DNA from: Deferribacteres bacterium
GTDB lineage: Bacteria > Zhuqueibacterota > Zhuqueibacteria > Zhuqueibacterales > Geothermadaptataceae
Length of the DNA stretch: 64,000 nucleotides
NCBI GenBank assembly: GCA_020633675.1
Contig: JACKDE010000003.1
Span: forward strand, 459,633-523,632
Reading direction: 5' to 3'
Position numbers and translations under genes: made by a program. A model generated the notes under the pieces. It had not been told where the DNA came from. It ran no database searches and saw only the letters and a list, made by a program, of their open reading frames with translations. This document shows positions 3,927 to 61,399 of the stretch, one piece after another; the first letter of the stretch is position 1; every line of letters begins with the position of its first letter.

Positions 3927-4625
3927 ATGTCAAAAAAAATAGATGTGCTGCTGGAGATGCTGCAGCATCCCCCGCACAATCACAACATTTTCAATCCGTG
4001 GTACGACAACGATCATGAGAATGACGGCGGGCCGCGTGCGCCGGAAATTCGCCGCTGGCAGTTGGATGCGTACCTGCGTACGCGCCTGCGCAGGGCGAAA
4101 TATCTGCTGCTGGCGGAGGCCGTCGGCTATCAGGGCGGCCATTTCAGCGGCATCGCCATGACCTCCGAGCGCATTTTGCTGGGCCAGCTCGCCGACCGCG
4201 GTGTGCTGCCCGAGCATGTACTGCCGAATCGCAAGGCTCGGCAGACCAGCCACCCAGCCAAATTTGTCAATGGCTTTTCCGAGCCGACCGCTACCATTGT
4301 CTGGCAGGCGCTCATGCATTCCGGTCTCGATCCGGCGGAATTTGTGCTGTGGAATATTTTCCCCTGGCATCCGTTTCAGCCGGAAAAGGGTCTGCTCAGC
4401 AACCGCACACCAACCAATAGCGAGCTGCAGTCAGCCATCCCGATTGTGGAGTATGTGTTACGGACATTCAAAAAAGCCAAGATTGCCGCGGTGGGGCGAA
4501 AATCGGCAGGGATTTTGGAACAACTTGGGGTGCAGGCCACCGCCATGCGTCATCCGGCGCAGGGCGGCGCCACACTTTTCCGCCAGCAGTTTGCGGCGTG
4601 GGTGAGCACGTCTCAGGATAGATAG
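3927..4625 (+). CDS. Uracil-DNA glycosylase superfamily protein
   Basis: A motif-A-like segment LLLAEAVGYQGGHFSGIAMTSE and a C-terminal MRHPAQGG block (HPS-type motif B position), at a size typical of UDG-fold proteins. The subfamily is not resolved. Confidence 0.55.
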   Translation: MSKKIDVLLEMLQHPPHNHNIFNPWYDNDHENDGGPRAPEIRRWQLDAYLRTRLRRAKYLLLAEAVGYQGGHFSGIAMTSERILLGQLADRGVLPEHVLPNRKARQTSHPAKFVNGFSEPTATIVWQALMHSGLDPAEFVLWNIFPWHPFQPEKGLLSNRTPTNSELQSAIPIVEYVLRTFKKAKIAAVGRKSAGILEQLGVQATAMRHPAQGGATLFRQQFAAWVSTSQDR

Positions 4626-4917
4626 CGCGCTCCACGAACACATTCTATCCAGTTCATGCAATGGACTGCGTAGCTCTCCTCCCCGACATACTAATCTTTT
4701 TTTGACCACCAAAACAGCCAAAGCACTTGCTACAACGCCAACTGCCTGCAAGCTGCCGAAAACATACCGCGCACAAACATTCAGTAAGCGTAGTCTCTTG
4801 TGTTAATGTCGCCAGAATAGCACAGCATGCTTTCAACCAGCTTCACAGAAACTGATGGATGTCAACCTATTTTCAAAACCGCACGCCTGCTCAGCAACCG
4901 CAACACTGGCGCAATCT

Positions 4918-6033
4918 TCAATCAGCAGCTCTCGCTGAGGGCGTAAAAAAGTACTTTTTGATCATGAGCACCCAGACCGCGATGCCGATGACGAACAGAA
5001 CCAGAAACAAAATCAGCACATCCAGTTGCGTTTTGACCACCAGGTCGCTCGATTTGAAATAGGGGGACAGGTACGCCGTGCGCAAAATATCCCGCATGAT
5101 GGCCATAAAAACGACCACAATCCCGGTGATTCCCATCGCCCAAATGGCCGGTTTTCTCGGGTCTTCATTTCGAATGCCATTGGACATCACAAAGATGGAC
5201 GCCAGCCCACCTAGGATGCTGATCAGCAGAGAAACGGTGCCCAACATGTTACCACCCATGAATTGCAGCATCAACTCCCGGGGAAGGCTGATCAAAAACC
5301 AGATGCCTACTAAAAACTGCACCATCGTGGCATACATAAACCATTTCCCGCCACGGACGATCAAAAAGCGGGCATAGTCCTGTTCTCTTTTCCAGCGAAA
5401 AAGTCCAATGATGATCAGAAGAAAAGAACCAATTGCGATCGACGCGACCAGGAAATGCAAAAATCGCGGGATCAGGGTTGTTTCAGACAGGTTCAAGTTC
5501 CAGCCGGACGGATCATGAAAATATTTCGCTGCCCAGGAAGAGGGCGTGTTCATCAAGGTAAAATTGTTGCTGTAGAAAAATCCCACCAGGAAGATGAAGA
5601 ACACACTGATCAGCATTAGCCACCCTATGCTTCGGGATTTTTTATCCTTGTTGAATGAGACGATGTAGAATCCGTAATAAGCCAACACTAATAAAACCAG
5701 CACCAAAAACCATGGCCAGGCCATGATGATGGATGAAGTGTAAAGGAACTGGCCATAGAGCACTTGTACAAAAAGCAACGGCGCGATCCCGAGTGTAACC
5801 GTTGCCGCCAGCAGTGATGGGATTTTGGGGACAATGTCCTTGAACAAGCGTTGATCCTTGTCATTTTTCTGCCCAAAAAATCTGGTCCATACAGCAATAA
5901 GGCCACCACCAAACATGAAGTTCATCACCACTATATGGAGAATAAAGGTTAACACCAACAACACTTTAAAAAGCCAGAATGGCGCTGGAAGTGGCATGGG
6001 ATCAATTGCAGGAATGATGATTTCCGTACCCAT
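4918..6033 (-). CDS. Polytopic membrane protein, probable second subunit (CydA-paralog-like) of the bd-like oxidoreductase
   Basis: About 9-10 hydrophobic helices. Its N-terminal helix LTFILHIVVMNFMFGGGL mirrors helix 1 of the upstream CydA-like protein (ITHVFVSHFAIGGGL). GAGGAG RBS. It starts 32 nt after the upstream gene's stop on the same strand. Confidence 0.6.
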   Translation of the reverse strand: MGTEIIIPAIDPMPLPAPFWLFKVLLVLTFILHIVVMNFMFGGGLIAVWTRFFGQKNDKDQRLFKDIVPKIPSLLAATVTLGIAPLLFVQVLYGQFLYTSSIIMAWPWFLVLVLLVLAYYGFYIVSFNKDKKSRSIGWLMLISVFFIFLVGFFYSNNFTLMNTPSSWAAKYFHDPSGWNLNLSETTLIPRFLHFLVASIAIGSFLLIIIGLFRWKREQDYARFLIVRGGKWFMYATMVQFLVGIWFLISLPRELMLQFMGGNMLGTVSLLISILGGLASIFVMSNGIRNEDPRKPAIWAMGITGIVVVFMAIMRDILRTAYLSPYFKSSDLVVKTQLDVLILFLVLFVIGIAVWVLMIKKYFFTPSARAAD

Positions 6034-6065
6034 GATTCTTCTCCTCTATCTTGAATGTATATTTG

Positions 6066-7619
6066 CTATTTAAACTGTACCGGAATCCAGCGGGCTAAAG
6101 CTTCCCGTTCTGCGTCGCTGCCCTCGAAGGGCGGCATTTCCTCGCTCAGGGAATCCAGCCTGGTGATCAAATAGGATACCTCGGAGAAATCATATTTCCC
6201 CATGGAGACAAACATGGTATCACTCGCAGCATATTCATGGCAGTCGGCACAATTTGCTTCGAAAACGACTTCGCCGCTGATATCGATGTCCGTCACTTCA
6301 ACATCTTCAGGCGCGACCGGCGCCAGTGTGGTCAGGTATGCTGCCAGCGTCTCTCTCTCCTCATCTGTTCCCGCAAATGGCGGCATGACCGCGTTGAACA
6401 TATTTTCCAGAGATGAAATCCTGCGGGAAATTGCCGTTTGGCTCCATTTTTTCTCAACAAGCACCTTCCGGATGCCTCGATATCCGTCGATAGTATGGCA
6501 GCTTTGGCATTGAATCCTGAAAATCTCCATGCCTGCTGCCATTTGGTTCTCGCTCGTTATCTCCTTACTCTCGGCCCATTTGGCGACCGGAAGAAGTCCC
6601 TTTTGTTGTATGTTCTGAATCGACATGCCACCATCACCGGGAAACTGGTCTTTATAGATTGAATTTGCATACATATAATCATAGATGATATAAGGTTTGC
6701 GAATCGCTTCGCGGATAAATTCAAACGAACCCATGGTGCCAAAGGCCAGCAGGAAAATCAGCACACTCAAGGCAAAGGGCACTTTCTTTGGCTTGATTAA
6801 TGTGAGCAGGGAAAAGAGAAAAGTGAGAGCGGAGAAAATCAGGATAGAATTGGCATATTGAGTCGCGGTGGGCATTTTCCCTCTGGCGCTTTCCCACACA
6901 ACATCGGGAATGTTGCCGATGTACCACCAGGCAAAGATCGGAATGATGATGAAAGCGGGGATGATCCACTTCACACTCCATTTGACGATTTTACCCTTCA
7001 ACTCCAGGTCCTTCTGGAGCGTACCGGTGATGAGCGCGTAGACTCCGGCCAGTGCAAAGGCAAAAGTCGTTCTCAACAGCAGGGACGGGAAATAGGTCGG
7101 ATTAAAGAATCCCTGCCAGAAATTCTGCGTTTCCAGCCATTTCCCTGGCGTGAGCATGAAAGCTAAAATACCGTTGATCACCACCATGCTTAGATATGCT
7201 GCGATAAAGTAAATCCAGCCGAGCCAAAGGTGGGTTTTGCGATCCAGTTTATTCCAGCCGTACAGATAAAGCAAGGCAGCCGTGATTTCCAGGAAAAAGA
7301 AAATCCATTCAATTGCCCAACCCCAGACATAAGCGTGAATCAGAGCGCTGGTACCGGATGGATGGATCAGGCCAATGGTAAACCAGATGCCGACCCCTGA
7401 AATCGCGCCAAAAACCACTGTCACCAACACAAAAAACTTGGTGTGTCGCTTCAGCCAGTCCAACAGTGAAGCATCATCTTCCCGGTAGGCTTTTTTTTCG
7501 GTCAGCACCAGGAACAAGCCGCCTCCGATGGCGAAATGGGAGACAAACACATGGGTGATTGCTACAATAGCTATGAGCAATCCCGCACCAAAAGCAACAT
7601 CCCAAACCGGGTAATTCAT
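6066..7619 (-). CDS. Cytochrome bd-type quinol oxidase subunit I (CydA) homolog fused to a C-terminal di-heme cytochrome c domain
   Basis: The N-terminal ~340 aa are polytopic, with a CydA-like helix-1 His (AITHVFVSHFAIGGGLF) and a WGWAIEW block. The C-terminal ~170 aa are soluble and carry two CxxCH motifs (CQSCH, CADCH). GGGAGG RBS. Confidence 0.75.
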   Translation of the reverse strand: MNYPVWDVAFGAGLLIAIVAITHVFVSHFAIGGGLFLVLTEKKAYREDDASLLDWLKRHTKFFVLVTVVFGAISGVGIWFTIGLIHPSGTSALIHAYVWGWAIEWIFFFLEITAALLYLYGWNKLDRKTHLWLGWIYFIAAYLSMVVINGILAFMLTPGKWLETQNFWQGFFNPTYFPSLLLRTTFAFALAGVYALITGTLQKDLELKGKIVKWSVKWIIPAFIIIPIFAWWYIGNIPDVVWESARGKMPTATQYANSILIFSALTFLFSLLTLIKPKKVPFALSVLIFLLAFGTMGSFEFIREAIRKPYIIYDYMYANSIYKDQFPGDGGMSIQNIQQKGLLPVAKWAESKEITSENQMAAGMEIFRIQCQSCHTIDGYRGIRKVLVEKKWSQTAISRRISSLENMFNAVMPPFAGTDEERETLAAYLTTLAPVAPEDVEVTDIDISGEVVFEANCADCHEYAASDTMFVSMGKYDFSEVSYLITRLDSLSEEMPPFEGSDAEREALARWIPVQFK

Positions 7620-7638
7620 CTCGGCCTCCCTTCTTGAA

Positions 7639-7672
7639 GTATTTGATTGTGTATTTGAACACTGTATTTTGA
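7639..7672. repeat. Three direct repeats GTATTTGA / GTATTTGA / GTATTTTGA spaced 12-13 nt, just upstream of the cydA-like start
   Basis: Read directly at 7639-7646, 7651-7658 and 7664-7672. On the transcribed minus strand they read TCAAATAC and lie 20-50 nt upstream of the ATG at 7619. Function unknown. Confidence 0.3.
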
Positions 7673-7966
7673 GGAATGATATGAATTGAACTCGAGAACC
7701 AAACTGAGTTCAGGAAGGATTGTCGTGCAGATAATAAGCGGCTCATCTCTGAATCACTTTTAATCGAATTGTCCGGAGAGATTGCATGCATCGATATCTG
7801 AATTTTTCCAATACATGCGTGTTTGACACAAGTTATCGGCAGCTACGGAATTTGTCCACGAATATCAGGGAGCATTCTGCAACAACAGCATCTTTCTGCA
7901 AATGCATAGTCAAAATATTCCATCGCTGAAACCAGCAAAAGCTTTATCCATCCCCATAGCAGATTG

Positions 7967-8003
7967 GCAAAGCTGCAAAGAAAGTGCTTCTCTTGCAGCT
8001 TGC
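7967..8003 (-). terminator. Possible hairpin terminator after pdxJ
   Basis: Inverted repeat AAGCTGCAA ... TTGCAGCTT (9 perfect bp, extendable with one bulge, 14-nt loop), about 17 nt downstream of the pdxJ stop. There is no clear U-tract. Confidence 0.35.
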
Positions 8004-8020
8004 ACAGTCTAAAACTCCCC

Positions 8021-8734
8021 TTACCGTACCAAATCCAGCATGTCACGGACGGCGCGTTCCATCCCCACCATCACGGCTTTGCTGACTATGGCGTGGCCAA
8101 TGTTGATCTCTTCAACGGCCGCAATGCGGGCAATGTCGCCGACGTTTTGATACCCCAATCCGACGCCTGCACTGACGCCCAACCCGAGCTTGCTGGCGCC
8201 CATCGCGACCGCCCGGATGCGCTCGACTTCATCCATAATCTCATTGTAGTCGGTGCTTTTTGAATACACACCTGTGTAAATTTCGATGAAATCGACTTTG
8301 AGCTTGGCCGCGGCGCGAATTTGATGCACTGCCGGCTCGATCAGCAGATTGATGGCAAGGTTTTGTGTGCGCAGCATATCGACCACTTCCTGCAAATAAT
8401 CGAGATGGGTGTTGGCATCGAGCGCAGTTTCGCCATGCTCCTCCTTCCAACGCTCCGGCACCAAGGTCACCATATCCGGCACCACCTCCAGCGCGACCTT
8501 GATGAGTTCTTCGGTTGGTGCGATCTGCAGATTGAAGTGGCTTTTCACAATTTCTTTTAGCAGGTAAACATCTTTTTCGGTAATATGGTTGCGGTCCTCA
8601 CGCAGATGGCAAACGATGCCATCAGCACCAGCTTGTTCGATCAGCACCGACGCAGCTACCGGGTCCGGCAATTTGCTGCCTGCAGACTTGCGCAGCACCG
8701 CGATCTGATCAACCTTCACTCCCAATCTCGCCAT
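8021..8734 (-). CDS. pdxJ: Pyridoxine 5'-phosphate synthase
   Basis: MARLGVKVDQIAVLRKS...PDPVAASVLIEQAGADGIVCHLREDRNHI matches the PdxJ N-terminal signature. 237 aa, the typical length. GAGGAG RBS. Confidence 0.9.
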   Translation of the reverse strand: MARLGVKVDQIAVLRKSAGSKLPDPVAASVLIEQAGADGIVCHLREDRNHITEKDVYLLKEIVKSHFNLQIAPTEELIKVALEVVPDMVTLVPERWKEEHGETALDANTHLDYLQEVVDMLRTQNLAINLLIEPAVHQIRAAAKLKVDFIEIYTGVYSKSTDYNEIMDEVERIRAVAMGASKLGLGVSAGVGLGYQNVGDIARIAAVEEINIGHAIVSKAVMVGMERAVRDMLDLVR

Positions 8735-9903: not shown

Positions 9904-10515
9904 TTAGTTTCCGTAAACAGCCTTTAGCGTACTCCACGTCGGCTCATCGCCGACAGCCACATCTTCCCACCGGTAGATTGCCCAATCGCCAAAAGAGTCG
10001 ACGCCCATATTAAAGCGTGCCTGGCCGGCAACCACGGCCGGGACGCCTTTATCTTGTTGTGTGTGCTTGACGGTCAGAGTGTAATTTTCGACGAACAGGG
10101 CGGAATCAGCAAACTGTGTGGATTGCACAACTTGCAGATTTAATATATGCAGCGAATCTGGAGGAATAAGTGCCCGGAGTTGGCTGAAGTAACTTTTTTC
10201 GTTATCCTTTGTCCAGCGCTCGAACAAACCCGGATTTTCTGAAGCGACGCCGGCATCCGCAATGAACCGAAATCCTTGCGGCAAGCGGGTGGAATCTCCG
10301 AGGCAACGCAAATAGTTTTCCAGGTTTTGTTCCAAAATGGCATTGCGCAAGTTGATCAATACCACCTCCGGCGTTCTGGGTGGAATAAAGGACAGGCTCC
10401 CTTCACTCGGTGCTTCAGGTTCACGGGTCGCAAATGGATTGGTACATGCGCAAAGAAGCGCACATACAGCAATGGGGAACTTTATCAAATAGCGGCTTCG
10501 TTTGAGCCTGACCAT
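9904..10515 (-). CDS. Hypothetical lipoprotein
   Basis: Lipobox-like AVCALLCAC at the N-terminus. No family recognised. Long ORF co-directional with its neighbours. Confidence 0.5.
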   Translation of the reverse strand: MVRLKRSRYLIKFPIAVCALLCACTNPFATREPEAPSEGSLSFIPPRTPEVVLINLRNAILEQNLENYLRCLGDSTRLPQGFRFIADAGVASENPGLFERWTKDNEKSYFSQLRALIPPDSLHILNLQVVQSTQFADSALFVENYTLTVKHTQQDKGVPAVVAGQARFNMGVDSFGDWAIYRWEDVAVGDEPTWSTLKAVYGN

Positions 10516-10745: not shown

Positions 10746-12776
10746 TTAGCGCATGTAGATCATTTTGCGAACAGCAGTAAATGACCCGGCTTGCATTTTG
10801 GTAAAATAAACTCCTGATGCCACAGCTTTACCGTTGCCGTCCATGCCACCCCAGTGTTCCTCATAGCTGCCTGTTGCAAGCTCCTGATCCAGCAGAGTGG
10901 TGACTTGCTGGCCATCGATTGTGTAAATTTCCAGCGTGACATGCGCTTTGTGGGGTACGGAAAAAGGAATGACGGTGCCGGCGTTGAACGGATTCGGATA
11001 ATTTTGCTGCAACTCAAAATGCTCCGGAACACCACTTTCCGTTTCGGTTGCTACCGCAGAAGCCACTGTAAAATCATCGAGACTACGTGGCATGAGCTGA
11101 TAGCCACTATTGTATGGCGCTGTACCATCGAACTGCGTTACAATACCGGTGATATTGACGACACCTTGCAGGGCTGCCGTGCCGGCTATATCCGTGTCGC
11201 CATCGATGCGCATGACACAGGAACCGGAGCCATCATCGATGGAAAGATTGGCATTGGCGCCTGTTGGTGGAAATCGTCCAGTGATGGTCGCTCCGACAAT
11301 GGTCACCAGTTGTCCTTCGAATTGTTCGCCATCCTGGGCGAGCTGGCCTGTGGAGGCTTGCAGGGGCGCCGGGAACGGCTTAAGCCCGAGACGCGTGACC
11401 GAGTATGGGATGATTTGGGATAGGCCATTAAAAGTGTTGATCGTGCCGGTCACCTCGAATTCGAATGCGAACGCTGGAATGACTTTGCCGACAAAAAGCG
11501 AACCAAAGACGGCAATACCGCCTGTATCATCTTGAATATAGCCGGGACCGCTGCTGCCGAACTGTGGCCCGGCAGTGGCTACACCGCGGACCGTCACATT
11601 GGTTTCGCCGAGCCTGCGCGGCAAGCCATTTGCGATATTCTCATGCAAATCTGCGATCGCAACCGCCTCGACCTCTGGAGCTGTGTACTGACCAGGCGAA
11701 TTGATCCATATAGGGCTGGACCAGAGAAAATCACCATCTTCCTGCACTAATTTGACGAAATAATAGCTTTCGCCAAAACTTGCAGAGTCGCTCGTGTCCC
11801 AGGTAAAATCGGTGCTGCGTGGCTCGAAACGCCGGATAAGCAGGCCATTTTTATACAATTGTGCCGATAGAAATGGGCTTTCGGCGTGGGCCGAGACAGT
11901 GAATTTCACGGCATTGTCATCGTTCTCAAACTGCTCGCCCATCCAGTGGTCATCTGCTGTAAATTCAGTCAGATACATGCGATCACTGGCAGGACTGGCT
12001 TCGAATGCAAAGGTTCTATGATTCTGATAGGCTTCTAAAATGTGTGTTTTGGTCAGGCTATCTGCCAAGATACCGGTCAGGTAAATATCGCCGGCCGTGG
12101 AGATGTTGTCGCCGTAGCGGCTGGCATGGTTGTCCTGATCGCCGACGGCACCGAGATGCCAGCCATTTTTAAGCGCCAATAGATAATAATACTCATAATC
12201 TGAGGAGCGTCGGCCATTGATGACCTCCAACGCTTTGATTTGCAAATCGACCGGCTGAAAATACGCCAGATCATTGAAATTGCTGTTACCATTCTCGGTC
12301 GTCGGATGGTTGAATTGCGCCAACAATTCATTGTCAATTAAAAACTGATAAGCAGACTGCAAATTATAGCGGGTATCGTTATCGCTGATATTGTCGGCAC
12401 GCATCAACGGTTCAAAAATGTTCATATGGCCATAGCCCGAGCTGCCGAGGCTGCCCAGCTCCTGCCCAGCGATCGCAACGAATTGGCTGTCCTGATTGTC
12501 ATACAACTGCGAAGCCGCCCGCACTAACTGATAGTTGCTTTCGGACAGGCCATTGGTGTGATCCGTGATCGCCATAAAATCGATTTTCGCGACATTTTTC
12601 GCATATGCATAGGCTGCGGCAGGGGTTTTCGCACCGGATTGCGCATCCCATGAAAAGATAGAATGCTGGTGCAGATCACCAAAATAGACCTGATAATTTT
12701 GTGCGTTCACCGTCGCTGCCAGAGCAAGGCTGACAATGATGATGAACTTACGAGCAGCTAACTGAGCTAATTTCAT
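10746..12776 (-). CDS. Secreted PHP-domain metallophosphoesterase-like protein with a T9SS C-terminal sorting domain
   Basis: Signal peptide ending VNAQ. PHP-type motifs YFGDLHQHS and MAITDHTNG. The central region looks like beta-sandwich/OB-like domains (not resolved). The last 90 aa (10746-11018), FELQQNYPNPFNAGTV...GVYF...RKMIYMR, form a T9SS type-A CTD. Confidence 0.7.
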   Translation of the reverse strand: MKLAQLAARKFIIIVSLALAATVNAQNYQVYFGDLHQHSIFSWDAQSGAKTPAAAYAYAKNVAKIDFMAITDHTNGLSESNYQLVRAASQLYDNQDSQFVAIAGQELGSLGSSGYGHMNIFEPLMRADNISDNDTRYNLQSAYQFLIDNELLAQFNHPTTENGNSNFNDLAYFQPVDLQIKALEVINGRRSSDYEYYYLLALKNGWHLGAVGDQDNHASRYGDNISTAGDIYLTGILADSLTKTHILEAYQNHRTFAFEASPASDRMYLTEFTADDHWMGEQFENDDNAVKFTVSAHAESPFLSAQLYKNGLLIRRFEPRSTDFTWDTSDSASFGESYYFVKLVQEDGDFLWSSPIWINSPGQYTAPEVEAVAIADLHENIANGLPRRLGETNVTVRGVATAGPQFGSSGPGYIQDDTGGIAVFGSLFVGKVIPAFAFEFEVTGTINTFNGLSQIIPYSVTRLGLKPFPAPLQASTGQLAQDGEQFEGQLVTIVGATITGRFPPTGANANLSIDDGSGSCVMRIDGDTDIAGTAALQGVVNITGIVTQFDGTAPYNSGYQLMPRSLDDFTVASAVATETESGVPEHFELQQNYPNPFNAGTVIPFSVPHKAHVTLEIYTIDGQQVTTLLDQELATGSYEEHWGGMDGNGKAVASGVYFTKMQAGSFTAVRKMIYMR

Positions 12777-15871: not shown

Positions 15872-16885
15872 TTAATTGGCATGAGCCTTGGCTTCGACAC
15901 GCACACCGCTGCTTTCAAGTGCTTTCATCGCTCTTTCGTAAGCAGCCATTGCAGAGTCCACTTTGACTTCGCGCATGTATTTCATGGCTTCGAGCTGTTT
16001 TAACGACAGCAGTGCCTTAACGTTCGCACGTTCAGCATCCTTCATCTCGGCTTTGCGCTGCATCATCTGTTCAAGCGAGATCAATTCCATTCGGACGCGC
16101 CGCATTTCGCGTGCGACTTCCTGCTGCAAATCTTTCTCCCAATGCACCATTTTGCCCTTTTCAAGCTGTTCAATTTCCATACTCAGATTTCGGATTGCTT
16201 CGCGTTTCAGGCGCATTTTAACAGTCGGGTCGATGGCGATCTTCAAGCCGTTATCGTTGCGAAAGCGCAAATATCTGCTCAGCTCCTTTGCATCATCGCC
16301 GCTGCTTCTGGCTATCGACCGCTGCAATTTCTCGTTAAACTCGCACATCGATTTCAGGCGCTCTCCTACCTCAACAAGTTGGTCGGGGCGAACAGGTCTC
16401 GGTACGGGTGGCATTACATGCACAACAGGAACGTTCGGTATCTCCGGAATAGCAATATCCGGGATATCGGCATTCGCGATGACGGCAGTATCCGGCATCG
16501 TATACACTTTGAACTCATAGTCGTATTTGGCAGAATCGTTTTTAAATTCAATTTGGGGAATTTCGTTCAAGTACAAAATGGCTTGTACCTGATCTGGATT
16601 GAGCTTGGCATTGCTCTGACTCAAGTTCAAAATATTCGCAGCAACTGTCTCAACCTTTTCTGGTGCAACTTGCTGATCGCGGACGTCATTGCTAAACTTT
16701 GCGTACATTTCCTTGATCGCGCCGCGATCTTTTTCGTTTGGCACCATCGCCAGCAATTTGTCGCCAAGTAGGTCAAGCGAGTAACCTAAAACGTCTTCTT
16801 TATAATTATTGTAAAGCCAAATGCCGCCGGTCACCACCACCAGCAACACGACGTACACCCCGATATCTTTTATCATTTGACGCAT
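15872..16885 (-). CDS. Hypothetical membrane-anchored coiled-coil protein
   Basis: One N-terminal TM ([16 protein letters not shown]), a Pro-rich linker and a charged heptad-like C-terminal half (EIEQLEKGK...[22 protein letters not shown]). GAGGAG RBS. No family recognised. Confidence 0.5.
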
Positions 16886-16965: not shown

Positions 16966-18063
16966 TTAAAATCGCAACTCGGTACCAATGCTTACTTCAA
17001 ATCCACTCAGATCCGTTTCGTTCAGCAAGCTGCCCGAATAAAGCATCAATCGCACGGGAATTGTTAAAAGCCGCGAAACTGCAATCTCCGGCATTATCCC
17101 AAGTCCTAAAAGCTTTGCCCCCGAGAAGGGCGAACTGGTTTCTTCGAAAAAGCGTCCTTCCGCCAGGATACGGAAATGCAGATTTCGCCGGAAACGCATG
17201 CGATAGTGCGCCATAAACTCGAATTGATTCGGGGTGGTCTTTTCGCTCTCTTCAACCAAAGCGCCGGCCTGCACCAGCTGATTTTTGGCTCGAGAGCGAT
17301 AGCTGGCAAAAAACCATAATTCATTGAAGTCAAAAAATTTGCGAAATTGCAGATTAAAAGTCAGTTTATTGCCAGAGTTAAAAATCTCAAAACCAGCGAT
17401 TTTATCGGCGCGGTAGCTGGAAAAGGTCAAATCCGTGCTGAGCGTGGCTGTTGGTGTAAGGCGGAAATCCATGCCAGCGGTAGCAAGCATTTCATCTCCG
17501 GGCTCGTACTCGCCCGGGAAAACTGCCAGCGGCTTGAAGGCATTGCGGCGTTGGTAGGTGGCGCCGAGCCCGGCCACCACATTATCGCTCAGCGGAATGG
17601 CCCAGGTGATTCCGGGCGCAAAGCCAAAACCCTCGCCAAAATTCGGCACACGAAAGCGAAACACAGAGTAACTGATCAGACTGGAGCTGATAAACTCATC
17701 AACTGTCAGCTCCTTTTTACCACTCGGCAAATTAATACCCAAGCTCAAAAACAGATTGGCTTTCTCGATGTGATAGGTGAGCATCAATTGCGTATCGGTG
17801 AAACTGCCTATGCCCGGAACGTCGTCGCCCGAGACATTGGCACGGTTGGCGTGCAGCGAAAGATTGAAATTGTAGCCGAAGGGCAAATAGAGAAAAACCG
17901 GTGTGCTGATTTCATCCACGCTGCGATTATCTGCGATATCCCAGGTTTGGTAATAAGACGACAGGCTGAAGATGCGAGTTTGCTGCACATCCTGCAGCGA
18001 CTCCTGCGCCCATATTGATGCGAAACTGCTAATAATCAAAATGATTATGAGGAACACCCTCAT
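16966..18063 (-). CDS. Putative outer-membrane beta-barrel protein
   Basis: Signal peptide (IISSFASIWAQ), alternating amphipathic strands throughout, and a C-terminal ...TELRF ending in Phe, as is typical of OMPs. AGGAGA RBS. Confidence 0.5.
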   Translation of the reverse strand: MRVFLIIILIISSFASIWAQESLQDVQQTRIFSLSSYYQTWDIADNRSVDEISTPVFLYLPFGYNFNLSLHANRANVSGDDVPGIGSFTDTQLMLTYHIEKANLFLSLGINLPSGKKELTVDEFISSSLISYSVFRFRVPNFGEGFGFAPGITWAIPLSDNVVAGLGATYQRRNAFKPLAVFPGEYEPGDEMLATAGMDFRLTPTATLSTDLTFSSYRADKIAGFEIFNSGNKLTFNLQFRKFFDFNELWFFASYRSRAKNQLVQAGALVEESEKTTPNQFEFMAHYRMRFRRNLHFRILAEGRFFEETSSPFSGAKLLGLGIMPEIAVSRLLTIPVRLMLYSGSLLNETDLSGFEVSIGTELRF

Positions 18064-18161: not shown

Positions 18162-21100
18162 CTAACGCACCAATAGCATTTTGCGCGATGAAACGAGATT
18201 GCCGGCACGCAGCCGATAGAGATAAATCCCGCTCGGCACGGCTTGGCCGTCAGCACTGCGGCCATCCCATTTTACCAAATGCTCACCGGCTGATTGTCTG
18301 GTTTGCACCAACACCGCGACTTCCCTGCCCATGCGATCAAAAACTGTCAACTCAACTTCGCCTGCTTCGGAAAGTTGGTAACGGATCACGGTTTCCGGAT
18401 TGAACGGATTGGGATAGTTTTGCTGCAATTCAAAGGCTGTCGGCACCAGCGGAATGTCACCAACTGCATCGCCGGCTGCTTTCTCGGTGCCGATCACAAT
18501 TTTATACAGCCTTCCGTCCTTGGCAGCGTCGCTCGCAACACGAAACATGCCATTCTGAAGCGGCACAATCGCTTCCTTCTGCATGTCAAACACAAAAATG
18601 CCGAACTCATCCGGCAAGGCACCGATTTTCCGCAACGAAACAAGAATATCACTTTTCAACGAGTTCGCATCGATCCGCACATCCCAAGAGCTGCCTTCGG
18701 TATTGTTATCGCGAAAATTGCCGGCAAACTGATCGCCATTTTCAATGATCGAGATGCTTAGCTCATCCGAAATCGCCGGAGCATCGAAGAAATCGAAATC
18801 ATCCAATCCAGCTTTTGCGCCATCGCGGAAACCGATAAAATTCTGTGTGTCACGGAACGATTCTCCAGCAGCTTGAGCGCTAATTTGCAGGACAAACTCT
18901 CGCGAACTGATGTCCGTGAGGGCGCGTGAGGCCATTTTGCCCTGCCGGGTGGTGGCGATCTCTGCCTCGACCGGTGGAATCGTCAAAATCGTCGGTGTCA
19001 GGCTCAAATTGAAGACAAAGTAACCCTGCCATGGCTCCAGCACCGGCACATCGAATTGATATTCATCACCGTCGAAAAAGACTGGATTTTGTACTGCGCC
19101 ATCCGCTGAAACAGCGTCCCAGGATACCGGGAACGCGAAAGGACAGGCAATTTGGTTCCAGCCCGGGCGCAGGGTGATTTGGTACGGCGCCGCTGCGCTG
19201 ACTGAGGTCGCATTGTCAACGTCGAAATTGACAGCTTCGCGGGTGATCAGCCAAAATGCCGTTCCCGGCGTAAATTCCGCCTCGATCTCGGAGTATTCCC
19301 GGTAGCCCAATCGCTCCCATCGGAACAAGCGCCACGCTCGCGGGAAAGTCTCGTAGCGGCCCAAATCGTCGAAAAGTACGGAATCGATAGCGGATTGCGC
19401 CAAAGTCATCGGCACGGAAATCATTCGGAATTTTTCCGCTGTTGGTGTACTCGCTGCTGCGAGACGGCTGATACGGGCCGGTATAAAACGCGGATTGTTT
19501 TGTGGATCGATCGGTGGCAGAGTAATGGTTGTCTCGCCGTCGGTGATTTCAATGTAATACTGTACGCCGCGTTCGGTCACCGCCGACGGTGGGATGGTCA
19601 CGTTCAAAGAGCTGCCGCTGACATTGATCGGTTCACTTTCATAGGTACTTCGCCCGGCTGAGCGGTAGAAAAGCTGGCCGCTGACTGCTGTGAACGCCTG
19701 CGGTGGCATAACGTCGATGACCAAACTCTCACCAACCCGGGTTTGCTCCGGCTCGACCACTGCAATCTCGCCATATTCGGTTATTTTTTCTGTGATTGCC
19801 AGGAATTGTTTAGCGACAAAAGCGCCCAGTGTTTCTTTTCCACCGGATGGCCATTCGATGATCAGCGCACTGGCAGTCTGCGCCGTTCCGAGTCCGAAAA
19901 ATGCTTGCGCGCTATTTTGTCCACCGAATCCACCGCCAGTTTGCGCCGCGATTTCGCGGAATTGCGAAACAGGCTGCCCGTCTATACTCGTTTGCAAGGT
20001 GATCTTTGCACCAATCGCTGATCGGTTTGATTTCGACCCGATAAGCTGAATGCTGATCCAGTTGTTATTGTGACCGTTATTCCGGTAGAGAAAATTCCGC
20101 CCATTGTTGGCAATCGCAAAATCGAGATCGCCATCGTTGTCAAAATCAGCTGTGCTCACGCCATTCGCCAGCACCGATGCTGCTAAGTTGTTTGGCAATA
20201 TCTGTGGCTCAAAAGCGCCATTGCCCAGGTTCAGAAACAGCACATTGTTTCCGACTTCACTATCATTTCCCGCGACCACCAAATCGAGATCGCCATCGCC
20301 GTCAAAATCCCCCCATGCACTGCCGGTATTGAACGCGAACGTGCCGGTGAAGCCGCTATCGTTCATTTTGCTAAAACTGCCATCGCCATTATTCTGATAG
20401 AAAAAGTTGGACGCAGCATCGTGATTGGTCACGATCAAGTCGAGATCGCCATCGTTGTCAAAATCGCCCCAGCTGGCACCGCGTGACGATCCCCCTTCTG
20501 TCGAAATCATCACGTCGGCCAATTTTGTAAAACCGCCATCGCCGTTGTTGCGATAAAGTGTGTTATTGGCTCCAGCGCCATTGAGCACAAAAAGATCAAC
20601 ATCACCATCTCTGTCATAATCCGCCCAGGTGCATCCAAATGAGTCGGCACCATCCGTTACGACTTCGCCGGTGGTGATTTTTGCAAAACGTATAGAATCA
20701 GCAGAGCTGGTATTCCGATACAGGAAATTACCGCCTTGCTGATTTGCCACGAACAAATCGAGCATGCCATCGTGATCGAAATCTGCCCAACTGGCCGCCA
20801 CGGAAAAGCCTCCGTCTGTCACGATCGCGCCATACAGGACTCTCGTAAAACTGCCATCGCCGTTGTTGATGTACAAAGCATTATCCGCAGCGCTGAAGCT
20901 GGCAATCAAGAAATCGCTATTGGATACATCCGCATTGGCAATAAACACATCGGCATCGCCATCGTTGTCGATATCGCCCCAGGAGGCCGCAAAGGATTGC
21001 ATCACATCGCTGGTAAGGGCTCCCGCATCTGCTAAGCTGAAATTTCCTGCACCATCGTTCTCAAAAAGCTGATTCGGCACATCAGCATCGCCGGTCGTGA

Positions 21101-24100
21101 AAAACAGATCGAAATCACCGTCAAGGTCGAAATCGACCCAACTGCTGCTGGTGGAATTGTACGATTCTGCAACAACCGGCCCTTCAACGATTTGGGTAAA
21201 CATGTCGAATGGCTGCACGCCGGTGCCGTGCAATTGCACTCTATCCGGGCTTGATGGCGCGTTGCTGGTGACGGTCAGATCGGCGATGCGCTGCCCCGAT
21301 GCTGACGGCTGAAACGCGATGGTCAGGTTTGCGCTCTCTCCGGGCTGCAGCGAGATGGTGCTGCCCGTATCCTGTAAAATAAAATCCGTGCTATTGGCGC
21401 CTGCGATTGCAATAGCCGCAACAGAAAGTGTGGTGCCACCGTCGTTTGTCAGCGTAACTGTGCGCAGGCTTTCTTTGCCAAGCCCCATCTCGCCAAATTC
21501 GACGGTCTGCGGTGTCAACGTCAGGGCGGGTTCGACCGTCATGCCTCTGCCTTGCAATTGCACAGTGTCGGGGCTTGAGGGTGCATTGCTCACGATCACC
21601 AGTTCAGCGACACGCTCACCTGCCGCTAATGGCTGGAACGCAACCTGCAAATTGGCGCTTTCGCCAGGTTGCAGCGTGATGGGGCTGCTGGTATCTTGCA
21701 AAACGAAATCTGTGCTATGGGTGCCAGCAATGACAATGGAACTGACAACCGCCGCAGCTTCGCCGACGTTTGCGAGATTGATGGTGCGCAAGACCGAATC
21801 CCCAAGCTGTGTTGCGCCAAAGTCGATCGCTTGCGGCGTCAGCATCAAGGCAGGTTCGACCATCATGCCTCTGCCTTGCAATTGCACGGTGTCCGGGCTT
21901 GATGGTGCATTGCTGACAATCACCAGTCCTGCGATGCGCTCACCTGCCACTAATGGCTGGAACGCAACCTGCAAATTGGCGCTTTCGCCTGCTTGCAGCG
22001 TGATGGGGCTGCTGGTATCTTGCAAAACGAAATCTGTGCTATGGGTACCAGCAATTGCGATGGAACTGACAACGGCCGCAGCTTCGCCAACATTTGCGAG
22101 TTTGATGGTGCGCAAGACCGAATCCCCAAGCTGTGTTGCGCCAAAATCGACCGTTTGTGGCGTCAGCATCAAGGCAGGTTCAACGACCACGCCTGTGCCA
22201 CGCAATTGCACCAAATCCGGGCTCGTAGGCGCGTTGCTGGTGACGGTCAACTCAGACACACGCTCGCCTGCGGCTGATGGCTGGAACGCAACCTGTAAAT
22301 TAGAGCTTTCGCCAGGTTGCAGCGTGATTGGGCTGCTGGTATCTTGCAAAACGAAATCTGTATTGTGCGCGCCAGTGACCGCAACCGTAGTTACCGAAAC
22401 CGGAATGCTGCCAGTGTTTGCTAAAGCAATGGTACGCAAAACTCGTTCTCCGAGCTGTGTTGCGCCAAAATCGACCGTTTGTGGCGTCAATGTCAGGTTT
22501 GGCGCTACCGTCACAAATGAGTAATCGTTCGCGCCAATTTCGGTCTGGAAACGCAGCGCATCATTGATTTGCAAGCCGTTTACCGTGGTAAAATCACCGT
22601 TGAGTGAGCCAAATCCAATCAATGCAAATCGATTGTCTGGCGCGGGCACAAAGCCATTGAGCAGCAGAATATCCAACCTGCCAGCCAAATTGGTAACACC
22701 ACTGATGGACACACGATCAAAACTGCTTTCACTGCCGATTTCCATTTCGAGCAAACCGGACTCGCTCTGCGTGTAGTCACCACGTACTTCCAACAAGCCG
22801 ATATCCGCGCCGGGCTGAAATTGCCCTCCCATCACCAGATTTGCCGCAATCAGTCCTGCACCGCGCAATGCACCGCCGGATATTTCAATGCTGCCAGCGG
22901 ATTCGATGCTGCCGCCAGCGAGAATCGTCGCACCAGAATTCTGCTTCATTCCGCTCGGGATGCGCAGAATGCCATTTTGCACGTCGATCTGACCACTGTT
23001 TTGCAAATCGAGATCGAGCGCGGCTTGTGCGCCATTTGCAGAGAAAGTGATCTTGCCGCGGTTTACCAGACTGGTAGTGCTGCCAGGATCAGGATTGCCA
23101 TTCCATTGCAGCGTGCCTTCGATCTGGAACACACCGTTCGCAGCGTTCAGCAGGCTTGCACCACTACCGCTTTGTAGAGAGAAAGTATCGGCAACACGCA
23201 CAATTCCACTATTTTTGAGCGCAAAACCATTCTGCCAAAACTTGTCCGCCGTGGTTTCTAAATCAACCGCGCCACTGTTCTCGAGCGTATCTTGGGCGGA
23301 AATGGCGCCACCCTGCCAGGTGATCGTCCCCAGATTTTCAAGCCTGCCAGCGAAAGAAAGTACACTCTGTACCGTGACAAGCAGCTCAGCTTGTGGTTGA
23401 ATTTTGGCAGCGCCGCCGATGGCAAGCGTCTGGTTGTTGGTCGACAAAATTTGCCTTCCGGTCGCTGGCGCATCAAGCGCGCCCAGTTCGAGGTGCTGCA
23501 CTGTGGCCGGAATATCCAATGTGACGGTGTAGTCTCCAGCTTGCGTTATGAAAACACGATCGAGTGCTGTGGGCACTGTATTTGTGCTCCAGTTGCCCGG
23601 CTCACTCCAATTTCCGGATAGCGCCGCGTTCCAGAAAACATCCTGCGCGCCAAGTGGCAGTGCATTCACAAAAACACCTTGACCATCTATGCCGGCAAAA
23701 ATCTGGTTTTGGCTATCGATCGTGAGCGACAACACGGCCGCGGCAGGCAATCCATCACTGAATAACTGCCATGAACGGCCGTTGTCTGCGGAAACAAACA
23801 CGCCCTGATTTTCTGCCAGCGCCAACAGCACACCGTTTTTTGCAGTCACCATTTTGTTGATGGTCGTGCGCTGCGCAATCGCTCCAATGCCAGACCAACT
23901 TTGGCCGTCATCAAGTGACGAGAATAGCGCCCCGCTTGCGCTGACCGCCAGCAGTTCGCCCCCCAACCTCTGAGCCATGGCCGTGATGCGTGTGCCTTCC
24001 ACGCCATTGGTGACCGGTAGCCAGGATTGGCCGCTATCCGAGGAGCGCAGCATGCGGGCAGCGCTGGTCGTCACAAAAAGGATGTCCTTTGCGCTCACAA

Positions 24101-25549: not shown

Positions 25550-26902
25550 TTATTTTCTTCCTGAAGTCACCGACTCACGAACGGGCGGCGGCGGCGGTTC
25601 CGGCAAATCTTCCAGGCCGGCGGAGGATGCTTCCTCAACTGTTTTGCGCTTGTCAATGCCGAGCAGAATGGCAGCGCCGATGTTCTCTCCCAAATGGCGA
25701 AGACGTGCTTCCACAAGGGCTTCCTTGCTGGCACGCAAAAAACGCTCTCGCCGCATGGTCGCGGCCAGCACATCTTCGCGTCGGCTGCGCATCTCGCTTG
25801 CTGCATTGGTTATTTCCAGCTTTTCGGCAGCCGTTTGAAACGCAGGATCGATTTGTGTGGCTTGCTGAAATGAACGGAATGCCGCGATGTACAAGCCGTT
25901 GCTTTCCTGTTGGAGACCACGACAAAACATCAAAAATGCCTGCAAATTGCGGGTGGGGACACGCAGGATTTCTTCCTGCTCTTCCTGTGTCAACTCGATA
26001 CCCATTTGGTCGAGAATGCCAAATACAATGGATTTTTCAAGGCGATAAAACTGGTTGAGCGCATCCGATTTAGATGCTGTGCGCGCTGCATAATCCTGCC
26101 GCACATCCGAGGCAATGACATCAACGTGCAGCTCTTTCTGCTCGCGCACATCCAGCGCGCCGGAGATGACTTTGCCTGCGCCCAGCAACAACCCGGTGCG
26201 CGGCGCAGTCGCCTGCTCAACCAGACTGGTTTGTGCAAATTCCAGCTCTTCGGATAGCGCCTGCAAACGCACGCGTTCAAGCACCCTCAGCACGCTTACC
26301 TTTGCCAAATCGATCGAAATCATCTCGCTCAACCCGTATCCCAGGTGCGCATACTGTGTATCGATGCCGGCATATTTAAACGGAAACACTGCAACGGCGC
26401 TGCGTACGATACGATCTTTGCTCAGTTCCTTCTCAAGCACCACCAGCGAGTCGATATCACGACGCAGCTTGCTTAAAAAAAGCCGCTGATAGCGCCCTGC
26501 CATCATTTTCCGAAAGGGTGACGATTCGGGATAATTGCGATAGCGGGAGTGAATCGCGATGGCAATTTCATCCTTGCCGCGAAATTCATATGCGAGGCCG
26601 GTGTAAAAGGCAATGCGTGGATCGTCCGGCTGTTTTTCGAAAGCATTGCGCAGATAGCCTTCCGCGCGGCGATAATCTTCTACGGCAAAATAAATCACGC
26701 CAAGATCAGCAATGGCCTGGGCATCCTGCGGATTGGCGAGGATTTTTTTCTGCAGTGTCCGAATTTTCGGGCGAAACTGGCTGAGGCCCTCCTGATATTG
26801 CACACGCGGCGCACAGGCACTAAAAACCAGCACGACCGCAAGCAGCAGCCCGCAAATGTGCTGGTTTTTCGAGATGAGATTTCTAATCCTGTTTTTAGGC
26901 AT
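25550..26902 (-). CDS. Lipoprotein with N-terminal TPR, a central CsgG/LpoB-like alpha/beta domain and C-terminal TPR-like helices
   Basis: Lipobox VLVFSAC. TPR-like YFAVEDYRRAEGYLRNAFE. Central block SAVAVFPFKYAG...GYGLSEMISIDLAKVSVLRVLERVRLQALSEELEF...GLLLGAGKVISGAL follows the CsgG-type pattern as I remember it. The ATG abuts the upstream stop. Confidence 0.55.
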   Translation of the reverse strand: MPKNRIRNLISKNQHICGLLLAVVLVFSACAPRVQYQEGLSQFRPKIRTLQKKILANPQDAQAIADLGVIYFAVEDYRRAEGYLRNAFEKQPDDPRIAFYTGLAYEFRGKDEIAIAIHSRYRNYPESSPFRKMMAGRYQRLFLSKLRRDIDSLVVLEKELSKDRIVRSAVAVFPFKYAGIDTQYAHLGYGLSEMISIDLAKVSVLRVLERVRLQALSEELEFAQTSLVEQATAPRTGLLLGAGKVISGALDVREQKELHVDVIASDVRQDYAARTASKSDALNQFYRLEKSIVFGILDQMGIELTQEEQEEILRVPTRNLQAFLMFCRGLQQESNGLYIAAFRSFQQATQIDPAFQTAAEKLEITNAASEMRSRREDVLAATMRRERFLRASKEALVEARLRHLGENIGAAILLGIDKRKTVEEASSAGLEDLPEPPPPPVRESVTSGRK

Positions 26903-27946: not shown

Positions 27947-28095
27947 TTGGCGCTCCTTCTGTGCAGATATTGCGTTCCGTGCAAATTAGATAATTTTTGC
28001 TTTTGACATGATTAGAATTTTGGCGGAAGAGATATGTGTTTGTGCACTCTTTGGCACACAGTTCAACTCATTCTCGTATGAAAAAGCTGATGTGC

Positions 28096-61387: not shown

Positions 61388-61399
61388 ACCCCCACCTCC

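Follow-up and report, generated by a model that had tools for sequence, protein, structure and literature searches.

To our knowledge, the cytochrome bd oxidases that have been solved and assayed are all quinol oxidases. In qOR enzymes heme b558 is the heme that faces the quinol. [quoted passage not shown] In that work OR-C1b is placed among the cydA clades. Its tables include Calditrichota and heme-free OR-C1b entries annotated as 'hypothetical protein', and the OR-C1b list holds heme-free 'hypothetical' proteins of ~370 aa from Acidobacteria. No purification, assay or other biochemistry of an OR-C enzyme was found in the literature that could be searched, where searches yielded only the defining preprint and papers citing its classification. 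This agrees with an earlier note on the DNA analysed here, according to which bd clades with fused c hemes had been surveyed and were biochemically uncharacterised. Because the family is named, its HMMs are published and its architecture is described, the locus reported below is less novel than that note implied.

The locus lies in a 64-kb window (the whole stretch of DNA that was analysed) and consists of two co-oriented genes, 32 nt apart:

6066-7619, minus strand: P1, OR-C1a-type CydA homologue, 517 aa, an 8-TM core plus a di-heme cytochrome c domain
4918-6033, minus strand: P2, OR-C1b-type CydA paralogue, 371 aa, 9 TM helices, cysteine-free
6034-6065, minus strand: intergenic spacer between P1 and P2, 32 nt, carrying the Shine-Dalgarno site of P2
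7625-7630, minus strand: GGGAGG, Shine-Dalgarno site of P1, from sequence
6041-6046, minus strand: GAGGAG, Shine-Dalgarno site of P2, from sequence

The start codons of both genes are backed by N-termini that are conserved among homologues. A promoter and terminator scan found no terminator-like site between the two genes; over positions 4500-8200 its sites were no commoner than in shuffled controls, and the minus strand was uninformative. The two-gene unit is a genuine feature and not a product of chance, because homologue searches returned more than 5000 homologues of P1 and more than 1100 of P2. An identical P1 is present in assembly GCA_020431415.1. The spacing given in the earlier note was correct (gap 6034-6065), and its remark that no cydB or cydDC genes lie nearby holds across the whole 64-kb window, where no ccm or other respiratory genes were found either.

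P1 begins with a membrane core, in which the following features are discussed:

6675-7619, minus strand: P1 membrane core, aa 1-315, TM1-TM8 (AF2 helices, positive-inside rule, alignment)
7551-7553, minus strand: P1 H23, counterpart by alignment of E. coli CydA H19, the axial ligand of the active-site heme
7287-7310, minus strand: P1 E104 to E111, counterparts of the CydA proton-channel and active-site glutamates E99/E107 (profile alignment to E. coli CydA)
6690-6722, minus strand: P1 motif E300-F-I-R-E304-A-I-R-K-P-Y310 at the periplasmic end of TM8 (family conservation, profile positions)

The core can be aligned over its whole length across 150 sequences, each standing for one 50%-identity cluster. 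In Pfam it matches Cyt_bd_oxida_I (PF01654) with 55.9 bits (cutoff 26.2 bits) over aa 15-194, corresponding to profile positions 5-191 of 418. Among PDB sequences the best matches of P1 are CydA structures, Geobacillus CydA among them (5doq_A, E 7e-6), and a Foldseek search of the PDB with its AF2 model (pLDDT 81.9, 8 TM helices) gives CydA chains as all of the best 10 matches. The numbers of K+R in successive loops are 0/6/0/3/1/3/2/3, and by the positive-inside rule both the N-terminus and the C-terminus of the core are predicted to be outside.

Helix 1 (ITHVFVSHFAIGGGLF) includes H23. Its aligned residue is H19 in E. coli CydA and H21 in Geobacillus CydA, and it is conserved in 94% of 96 diverse OR-C1a sequences. 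These 96 sequences, representatives of 50%-identity clusters, were used for residue conservation in the P1 core. E104 and E111 are conserved in 97% and 96% of them; their spacing is 6 residues compared with 7 in qOR1, and the one-residue qOR1 insertion shows as a gap in the alignment. The signature set of P1 is H23, E104, E111, Y118, Y120, H130 and S144. All of these are 85-97% conserved except Y120 (77%).

The quinol side of CydA is different. The column of E. coli H186, and of the corresponding His of 9r2g_A, is occupied in P1 by L182 and across the OR-C1a family by F/L/A/M/V. The TM6-TM7 loop is only ~15 aa long in the AF2 model, no conserved Met was found at the start of TM7 in the family alignment of the 96 representatives, and TM9 is absent relative to canonical CydA. 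By alignment and model, P1 lacks a quinol site, with neither a Q-loop nor the heme b558 ligands H186/M393. Note that the OR-C1a family profile matches E. coli CydA (E 1.3e-4) over TM1-5 only and is too weak past TM5 to settle ligands.

Another mapping of the helices, in which TM5-7 of P1 would be TM7-9 of CydA after deletion of TM5-6 and the Q-loop, was considered and rejected. It was suggested by second HMMER domains of low score (-0.5 and 2.5 bits) that align 'WWYIGNIPDVVW...MPTAT' of P1 with 'GWFVAEYGRQPW...LPTAV'. This WWYIGNIPDVVW-MPTAT motif is not kept family-wide (W242 and M249 are variable), the significant alignments are collinear through TM5, and the motif at the end of P1 TM8 falls on the profile positions of E445.

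The TM8-end motif is conserved at 91-99% across the family, in the form E-x-x-R-[KR]-P-[YFW]. Isolated fragments of two P1 relatives match PF01654 at profile positions 311-375 and 319-374. On this profile E. coli E445 and W451 fall at positions 362 and 368, where the OR-C1a Glu and Tyr also lie. These matches are sub-threshold (E about 0.002, 17 bits against the cutoff of 26.2) and were obtained with 2 of 9 fragments; the corresponding fragment of P1 itself gave no PF01654 match. E304 is proposed, from these profile positions, as the equivalent of E445, the second active-site heme ligand. Table S6 of the defining preprint lists E445 as absent ('-') from OR-C1a (bioRxiv 10.1101/2021.01.16.426971); the P1 family has a putative E445-equivalent Glu, E304, where that table shows '-'.

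The C-terminal part of P1 consists of two Cytochrome_CBB3 (PF13442) domains in Pfam:

6315-6587, minus strand: P1 cytochrome c domain 1, aa 345-435 (PF13442; CcoP-like)
6495-6509, minus strand: P1 CQSCH, aa 371-375, heme c motif of domain 1
6384-6386, minus strand: P1 M412, axial Met of domain 1
6069-6287, minus strand: P1 cytochrome c domain 2, aa 445-517 (second PF13442 stretch)
6237-6251, minus strand: P1 CADCH, aa 457-461, heme c motif of domain 2
6135-6137, minus strand: P1 M495, axial Met of domain 2

P1 has exactly two CxxCH motifs. They contain all four of its cysteines, and each is paired with an MPPF methionine. In domain 1, C371, C374, H375 and M412 are invariant among homologues; in domain 2, C457, C460 and H461 are invariant and M495 is at least 90% conserved. 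Both motifs are predicted to be periplasmic because of the 8-TM, N-out topology. In cbb3 oxidases electrons enter through the subunit CcoP. The last 170 aa of P1 resemble its di-heme module, matching TIGR00782 as well as PF13442, and the c domain matches 3mk7_C, 8snh_G and 8smr_G (E 0.002-0.006), weakly and over this domain only.

All that could be checked of the earlier note's reading of the 517-aa protein stands. It had described a CydA-type core with a histidine in helix 1, borne out by PF01654, 5doq_A and the Foldseek matches, and a soluble C-terminal part of ~170 aa with CQSCH and CADCH, now located at aa 371-375 and 457-461. It took this part for a covalent c-heme domain absent from canonical bd oxidases, as the two PF13442 domains and their CxxCH motifs also indicate. 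The cytoplasmic location of these motifs, which the note had raised as an objection, is contrary to the predicted topology. Of the heme ligands that it had suggested checking, equivalents of H19 (H23) and, putatively, E445 (E304) are present, and the b558 ligands H186/M393 are absent from P1.

P1-P2, an OR-C1 pair by homology, signature residues, topology and strict gene pairing, probably works as a terminal oxidase dependent on cytochrome c and not on quinol. Heme occupancy, the use of O2 as substrate and electron donation by cytochrome c are inferred; oxygen reduction by P1-P2 is an extrapolation from the qOR enzymes. P1 keeps the four-helix active-site module of CydA, namely H23, E104/E111, two residues of the cytoplasmic proton pathway (H130 and S144) and, presumably, E304. 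It has traded the Q-loop, the b558 ligands (H186/M393) and TM9 for a CcoP-like di-heme domain placed after TM8 and exported to the periplasm. Electrons would then pass from a periplasmic c-type cytochrome through heme c2/c1 of P1 to two active-site hemes in the pocket of TM1-4/TM8, where O2 would be reduced with cytoplasmic protons. Charge separation would give a membrane potential, as in canonical bd oxidases, and P2 would fill the structural place of CydB.

Three features of P2 matter here:

5935-5937, minus strand: P2 H33, H19 column, aligned with P1 H23
5455-5457, minus strand: P2 H193, column of CydA H186 (heme b558 His), by hhalign onto P1 L182
5071-5106, minus strand: P2 motif M310-A-I-M-R314-D315-I-L-R318-T-A-Y321, by hhalign parallel to P1 E300-Y310

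No Pfam or NCBIfam model matched P2, its profile found no match among PDB sequences even at E 10, and the family profile matched neither the single E. coli CydA sequence nor that of CydB. With hhalign, in contrast, 279 collinear columns of the P2 family align with the OR-C1a core, His on His (probability 98.7%, E 2.6e-16); a further hhalign run for the pair gave 93.7%. E. coli CydB gave no match to the P2 family (probability <1%). The AF2 model (pLDDT 80.7) has nine long helices, corresponding to nine hydrophobic segments, with the C-terminus inside. All of its best 16 Foldseek matches in the PDB are bd-oxidase subunits.

These data bear on whether P2 might be a highly diverged CydB, the canonical subunit II, cofactor-free and not derived from a CydA duplicate. 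CydB also has 9 TM helices, CydA and CydB chains are interleaved among the best Foldseek matches, so that the fold by itself does not tell them apart, and 1 of 32 family members weakly matches the CydB model PF02322 (E 0.022). P2 itself does not match this model, and the Pfam scan was otherwise noise. The hhalign results point the other way, as do the near-invariant His in the H19 and H186 columns, the ligand-type residue in the E445 column and the placement of OR-C1b among the cydA clades (bioRxiv 10.1101/2021.01.16.426971). The CydB reading is extremely improbable. By sequence comparison and model, P2 is a diverged paralogue of the P1 membrane core with the bd-oxidase fold, and the earlier note's suggestion that the partner is CydA-paralogue-like and not recognisably CydB was thus sound. 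We know of no counterpart in canonical CydB of the residues that P2 has in the H19, H186 and E445 columns.

H33 lies in the sequence LTFILHIVVMNFMFGGGL. H193 is assigned to the H186 column because L182 of P1, its hhalign partner, aligns with E. coli H186. H33 and H193 are each conserved in 121 of 121 sequences of one alignment and in 75 of 76 of another. M310 is found in 75 of 76 family members and R314 in all 76; position 315, which hhalign puts in the E445 column, is D in 53, H in 15 and E in 4 of the 76. At the E99/E107 columns P2 has A105 and L112, so the proton-channel glutamates are missing. As aligned, P2 complements P1, with ligand-type residues in the H19, H186 and E445 columns and without the channel glutamates.

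P2 might be a heme-binding subunit and no inert CydB-like scaffold, the three heme sites and the proton channel having been split between two copies after an ancestral CydA was duplicated, a view we hold to be possible although on balance doubtful. In P1 the O2-reducing pair (columns of H19/E99/E445) would have been retained along with the proton pathway, and the b558 His lost. P2 would have kept H193 in the b558 column, the invariant Met M310, H33 and the Asp/His/Glu in the E445 column, but not the glutamates. Two c hemes and four or five non-covalent hemes would then be present in the holoenzyme. If true, there would be an electron path or a second site without counterpart in any solved bd oxidase.

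The same residues enter a different explanation, in which the pair is not an oxidase at all and transfers electrons as a transmembrane or quinone-linked module. Examples would be a quinol:cytochrome c oxidoreductase, or a conduit that joins periplasmic cytochromes to the quinone pool. In this scheme b-type hemes (H33, H193, D/H/E315) would sit in P2 together with a quinone site, and the c hemes of P1 would be the periplasmic outlet. The His in the H186 (b558) column in 75 of 76 sequences, M310 and the Asp/His/Glu in the E445 column fit such a role, b558 being the quinol-facing heme of qOR enzymes. In structures of E. coli bd-I, the CydB pocket homologous to the heme site is said to hold ubiquinone. 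However, neither subunit has a Q-loop (TM6-TM7 loops of 13-15 aa in the AF2 models), the full set of active-site and proton-channel residues in P1 would have no purpose if the pair did nothing but pass electrons on, and no quinone metabolism gene was linked to the module in the neighbourhood comparison of 84 loci. Such a module is highly unlikely.

All 68 of the 68 species-representative loci that offered sufficient sequence have a P2 homologue immediately downstream of that of P1. Across 84 loci searched for a donor cytochrome, ccm, cydDC and assembly factors, no neighbour other than P2 recurred in more than 7, and the module never lies inside a respiratory operon in the loci compared. P2 is the obligatory partner of P1, and the two form a self-contained module.

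Clustering at 50% identity divides the family into at least 952 clusters, and genomes that represent species contain at least 596 stretches of it. Soil Acidobacteriaceae, Calditrichota, KSB1, sulfate reducers and Aquificae are prominent among its carriers, and it occurs frequently in strict or nominal anaerobes (Desulfovibrionia, Thermodesulfovibrio, Geobacter). The clusters nearest P1 include forms of ~800-890 aa with 8 CxxCH that are typical of Desulfovibrionia OR-C1a. The taxa of P1 homologues agree with Supplementary Tables 3 and 7 of Murali et al. (bioRxiv 10.1101/2021.01.16.426971). Against reading the complex as a terminal oxidase, an anaerobe-rich family fits detoxification of O2 or ROS/RNS, or another acceptor, no less well than energy-conserving respiration, and none of the genes for a cytochrome c donor, ccm or cydDC is linked to the module.

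An OR-C1 complex could also be protective and not respiratory, taking electrons from a periplasmic cytochrome c and scavenging O2, H2O2, NO or sulfide-related species while conserving little or no energy. Anaerobes and microaerophiles widely carry OR-C1 (Desulfovibrionia, with up to 8 hemes, Thermodesulfovibrio, Geobacter, Aquificae), canonical bd oxidases are known to help detoxify O2 and NO (PMC10839748), and the module is never set in a respiratory operon. On the other hand, the strong conservation of E104/E111/H130/S144, the set that makes up the cytoplasmic proton pathway of CydA, is expected if charge separation matters, and the clade that holds the P1-P2 locus is mostly aerobic or microaerobic soil Acidobacteriaceae. 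A purely protective role is unlikely here.

If the terminal-oxidase reading is true, OR-C would provide the first bd-type oxidases driven by cytochrome c. Since the family is abundant and taxonomically broad, its activity would bear on the handling of low O2 by many uncultured bacteria. P1-P2 is a compact two-heme representative that should be suited to expression, and the residue map provides targets for mutagenesis: H23, E104, E111 and E304 in P1, and H33, H193, M310 and D315 in P2.

Compared with known systems, P1-P2 resembles canonical CydAB (qOR1-3; E. coli bd-I and the Geobacillus thermodenitrificans bd oxidase) in the homologous TM1-5 (PF01654), the fold, the active-site His/Glu and proton-channel residues of P1, and the two adjacent subunit genes. 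Unlike CydAB, P1 lacks the Q-loop, the b558 ligands and TM9 and has covalent c hemes fused to subunit I; its partner is a CydA paralogue instead of a recognisable CydB (PF02322), and no cydX/cydS-like small subunit or cydDC is found near P1-P2. With archaeal CydAA' (qOR4a/qOR4b, Caldivirga maquilingensis) it shares the heterodimer of two CydA paralogues, the second of which lacks E99/E107 and keeps His19. However, subunit I of CydAA' keeps the quinol site and b558 ligands, uses quinol and has no c hemes, and qOR4b lacks H186 (A190 in Table S6), where P2 has a His in that column. The c module of P1 presumably takes up electrons from periplasmic cytochromes as in CcoP, but it is fused to a bd-type catalytic subunit, while CcoP serves a heme-copper oxidase.

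The closest likeness is to OR-C1. P1 matches the OR-C1a row of Table S6 (H24, E105, E112, Y119, Y121, H131, S145; bioRxiv 10.1101/2021.01.16.426971) almost position for position. It shares the 8 TM helices, the 6-residue Glu spacing, the Tyr-x-Tyr pair, the periplasmic C-terminal CxxCH domain and the lack of the Q-loop and H186/M393. P2 is like OR-C1b in adjoining P1, keeping the His19 equivalent and lacking E99/E107. OR-C1b as published has 8 TM helices and P2 is predicted to have 9, a descriptive difference and not a ground for exclusion. The His in the H186 column and the Asp/His/Glu in the E445 column were not found in the description of OR-C1b by Murali et al. Overall, P1-P2 differs from OR-C1 in nothing essential. 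The locus adds no new kind of system; by its sequences it is a typical member of OR-C1a/OR-C1b, an already named branch of the cytochrome bd family.

The two genes of the pair lie on the minus strand in the same orientation, separated by 32 nt, which confirms the two-gene layout described in the earlier note, and each is preceded by a well-matched Shine-Dalgarno sequence:

6066..7619, minus strand, P1, 517-aa CydA homologue with a C-terminal di-heme cytochrome c domain
7625-7630, GGGAGG, Shine-Dalgarno sequence of P1
4918..6033, minus strand, P2, 371-aa membrane protein encoded downstream of P1
6041-6046, GAGGAG, Shine-Dalgarno sequence of P2

P1 contains the helix ITHVFVSHFAIGGGLF and exactly two CxxCH motifs, CQSCH (residues 371-375) and CADCH (457-461), which hold all four of its cysteines; these elements had been read correctly from the sequence. 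The CydA model PF01654 covers residues 15-194 of P1 (profile positions 5-191 of 418; score 55.9 bits, cutoff 26.2), and by Pfam the C-terminal part carries two Cytochrome_CBB3 domains. The NCBIfam matches are weak and confined to c-cytochrome domains. Among PDB sequences, the top membrane-protein match is Geobacillus CydA (5doq_A, E 7e-6), and the C-terminal part is similar to CcoP, the di-heme subunit of cbb3 oxidases. In the AlphaFold2 model (mean pLDDT 81.9), eight long transmembrane (TM) helices precede two small helical domains, and in Foldseek its ten best PDB matches are all CydA chains (rmsd ~3.9 Å, 331-395 columns), with CydB chains after them. The core is thus of the CydA type by Pfam, PDB sequence and structure, so that the refuting condition of a non-homologous core does not hold. 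The positive-inside rule predicts eight TM helices with both termini outside, and therefore both heme c motifs are periplasmic, not in cytoplasmic loops, the location that the earlier note named as refuting. Maturation of c-type cytochromes is periplasmic.

Residues were compared with E. coli cydAB, whose standard numbering was confirmed before alignment. The P1-family profile pairs H23, E104, E111, H130, and S144 with H19, E99, E107, H126, and S140 of E. coli CydA, and the one-residue insertion characteristic of qOR1, among the quinol-oxidising enzymes, shows as a gap. Among 96 representatives of clusters at 50% identity, conservation is 94% for H23, 97% for E104, 96% for E111, 88% for Y118, 85% for H130, and 88% for S144. 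L182 of P1 occupies the column of H186 (the heme b558 histidine), which is hydrophobic across these 96 representatives. In the AlphaFold2 model the TM6-TM7 loop has only ~15 residues, and therefore P1 has no Q-loop. TM1 carries a second conserved histidine, H28 (window 7536-7538), five residues past the heme ligand; its column is His in 79% and Gln in 14% of the family, and P2 has an invariant asparagine (N38) there. H59 (7443-7445), where TM2 begins on the cytoplasmic side, does not vary within the close clade and is 55% conserved family-wide. E. coli CydA has no equivalent of H28 or of H59.

At the periplasmic end of TM8 is the motif E300-x-x-R303-E304-x-x-R307-[KR]-P309-[YFW], 91-99% conserved family-wide. 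E304 is very probably the equivalent of E445, a ligand of the second active-site heme, because the glutamate and tyrosine of this motif share profile positions with E445 and W451. TM6-8 fragments alone from two distant relatives match PF01654 at positions 311-375 and 319-374 (E ~0.002, under the curated cutoff, in two of nine fragments only; P1's own TM6-8 fragment gives no match). Calibration by E. coli fragments puts E445 at position 362 and W451 at 368, and the two residues of OR-C1a, the subunit type of P1, also fall on 362 and 368 when counted back from the fragment ends. E445 is given as absent from OR-C1a in Table S6 of Murali, Gennis and Hemp (bioRxiv 10.1101/2021.01.16.426971).

P2 contains LTFILHIVVMNFMFGGGL and no cysteines, and it has no match in Pfam, NCBIfam, or PDB sequences. 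Its family profile aligns with that of P1 at 93.7% probability, and broader profiles (121 P2-family against 96 P1-family sequences) reach 98.7% (E 2.6e-16) over 279 collinear columns spanning all eight shared helices. Nine TM helices are seen in its AlphaFold2 model (pLDDT 80.7), whereas eight are published for OR-C1b, the partner subunit type. In Foldseek each of the top 16 PDB matches is a bd-oxidase subunit, with CydA chains mixed among those of CydB. This mixture fits a rival explanation, in which P2 is a diverged CydB without cofactor. From the profile match and the Foldseek hits together, P2 counts as a subunit of the bd superfamily, and by sequence the relative that can be detected is the core of OR-C1a and not CydB. 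The CydA/CydA' pairing suspected earlier agrees with this and with the published OR-C1b, a second cydA-like gene adjacent to OR-C1a (Murali et al.).

In the hhalign columns, P2 H33 corresponds to H19, H193 to P1 L182 and E. coli H186, and D315 to P1 E304 and E445, while A105 and L112 stand in the columns of the two glutamates. In P2 and 75 partners (down to 29% identity; 76 sequences), R190 and R314 are invariant, H33, H193, and M310 each occur in 75, and position 315 is Asp in 53, His in 15, and Glu in 4. Ligand-type residues are kept in P2 and the glutamates replaced, so that, judged by sequence, P1 and P2 hold parts of the ancestral CydA ligands that complement each other, the heme ligands of P2 being putative. 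Hemes in P2 would also serve a rival model in which the pair is a quinone-linked electron conduit, a model that the missing Q-loop of P1 speaks against.

P1 has >5000 and P2 >1100 homologues; in Calditrichota, KSB1, Acidobacteriota, Verrucomicrobiota, and Eisenbacteria their identity is 55-60%. The P1 membrane core, used as query in an exhaustive search, matches 952 of the 50%-identity clusters at E ≤ 1e-3 and 246 at E ≤ 1e-30. In 95 representatives of near-full length, CxxCH motifs number zero (9 proteins), one (46), two (18), three (2), four (1), six (1), seven (1), or eight (17). Species-representative genomes contain at least 596 stretches encoding a P1 homologue. In each of the 68 loci where 1200 nt or more are available downstream, a P2 homologue follows immediately in the same orientation. 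Other ORF families each neighbour the pair in at most 7 of 84 loci, and five contexts inspected closely share nothing except the pair. The OR-C1 family is common in anaerobes, which would fit another rival, a chiefly protective, non-respiratory role. The 64-kb window has no cydB or cydDC, of which the earlier note had seen none nearby, and no ccm, other respiratory, tRNA, or tmRNA genes were found in it. GCA_020431415.1 carries an identical P1, and among named relatives Calditrichia MAGs are the nearest. GC of the window is 0.465-0.54 with no compositional break near the pair, so nothing points to recent horizontal acquisition.

Other features of the window are as follows:

9904-10515, 15872-16885, 16966-18063, and 32180-32806, minus strand, four ORFs (203-365 aa) without Pfam match at E ≤ 1e-3; the order of the first three is kept on related contigs
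10746-12776, minus strand, 676-aa protein with DUF5689 and C-terminal FlgD_ig; Por_Secre_tail is among precomputed Pfam hits
18162-25535, minus strand, giant 2457-aa protein with BNR/Sortilin-Vps10 repeats, at least four ASH/HYDIN/Cep192-type Ig-like domains, seven FG-GAP repeats, an ASPIC/UnbV domain, and C-terminal FlgD_ig
25550-26902, minus strand, TPR protein with a weak CsgG-like region
28096-29997, minus strand, Ser/Thr protein kinase with PEGA domain, followed by two TPR proteins, one of them that at 25550-26902 (block 25550-29997)
~36259-58094, minus strand, long co-oriented exopolysaccharide/capsule cluster: glycosyltransferases, UDP-GlcNAc 2-epimerase, three polysaccharide deacetylases, FemAB-like acyltransferase, NAD-epimerase, Wzz, Poly_export/SLBB, tyrosine-kinase-like P-loop protein, Bac_transf priming transferase, TPR proteins, and a STAS-domain protein
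58912-63300, minus strand, end of the dcw cell-division cluster: murG 62146-63300, ftsQ 61400-62149, ftsA 60146-61387, ftsZ 58912-60168

The C-terminal domain of the 2457-aa protein looks like a T9SS-type sorting tail, which would make it a large secreted or surface protein. The 676-aa protein is a putative second T9SS cargo, consistent with a Calditrichota/FCB-group host.

The observed homology, residues, topology, and pairing of P1 and P2 are best read as a cytochrome c-dependent bd-type O2 reductase, for which heme occupancy, donor, and acceptor are our inference. Electrons would enter via the CcoP-like di-heme domain of P1, which stands in for TM9 at the place where the Q-loop/b558 module would be, and would then reach a pair of non-covalent hemes with H23 and E304 as ligands. 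O2 would then be reduced with cytoplasmic protons conducted through E111, E104, H130, and S144, with P2 as an obligatory partner.

The features seen in P1 are those that define the OR-C family (Murali et al.). P1 agrees to within one residue of numbering with the OR-C1a row of their Table S6 (H24, E105, E112, S145, H131, Y119, Y121, F at H186, no M393). Their tables record OR-C in Calditrichota, their count is 532 sequences in 24,706 GTDB genomes, and their OR-C1b list includes heme-free proteins labelled 'hypothetical protein' in Acidobacteria, Aquificae, Thiomonas, and other taxa. In papers of 2024-2026, OR-C is mentioned solely as a class that has a name and available HMMs. The literature search yielded no OR-C enzyme that had been purified, studied by spectroscopy, or assayed for activity, in line with the clade's earlier description as biochemically uncharacterised. 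The pair is a real feature and was read correctly in the earlier note; what is new here is limited to residue-level refinements, which are valid family-wide and not specific to this pair. As a two-heme form it is typical of its family, which has been named and catalogued before but is biochemically unexplored.
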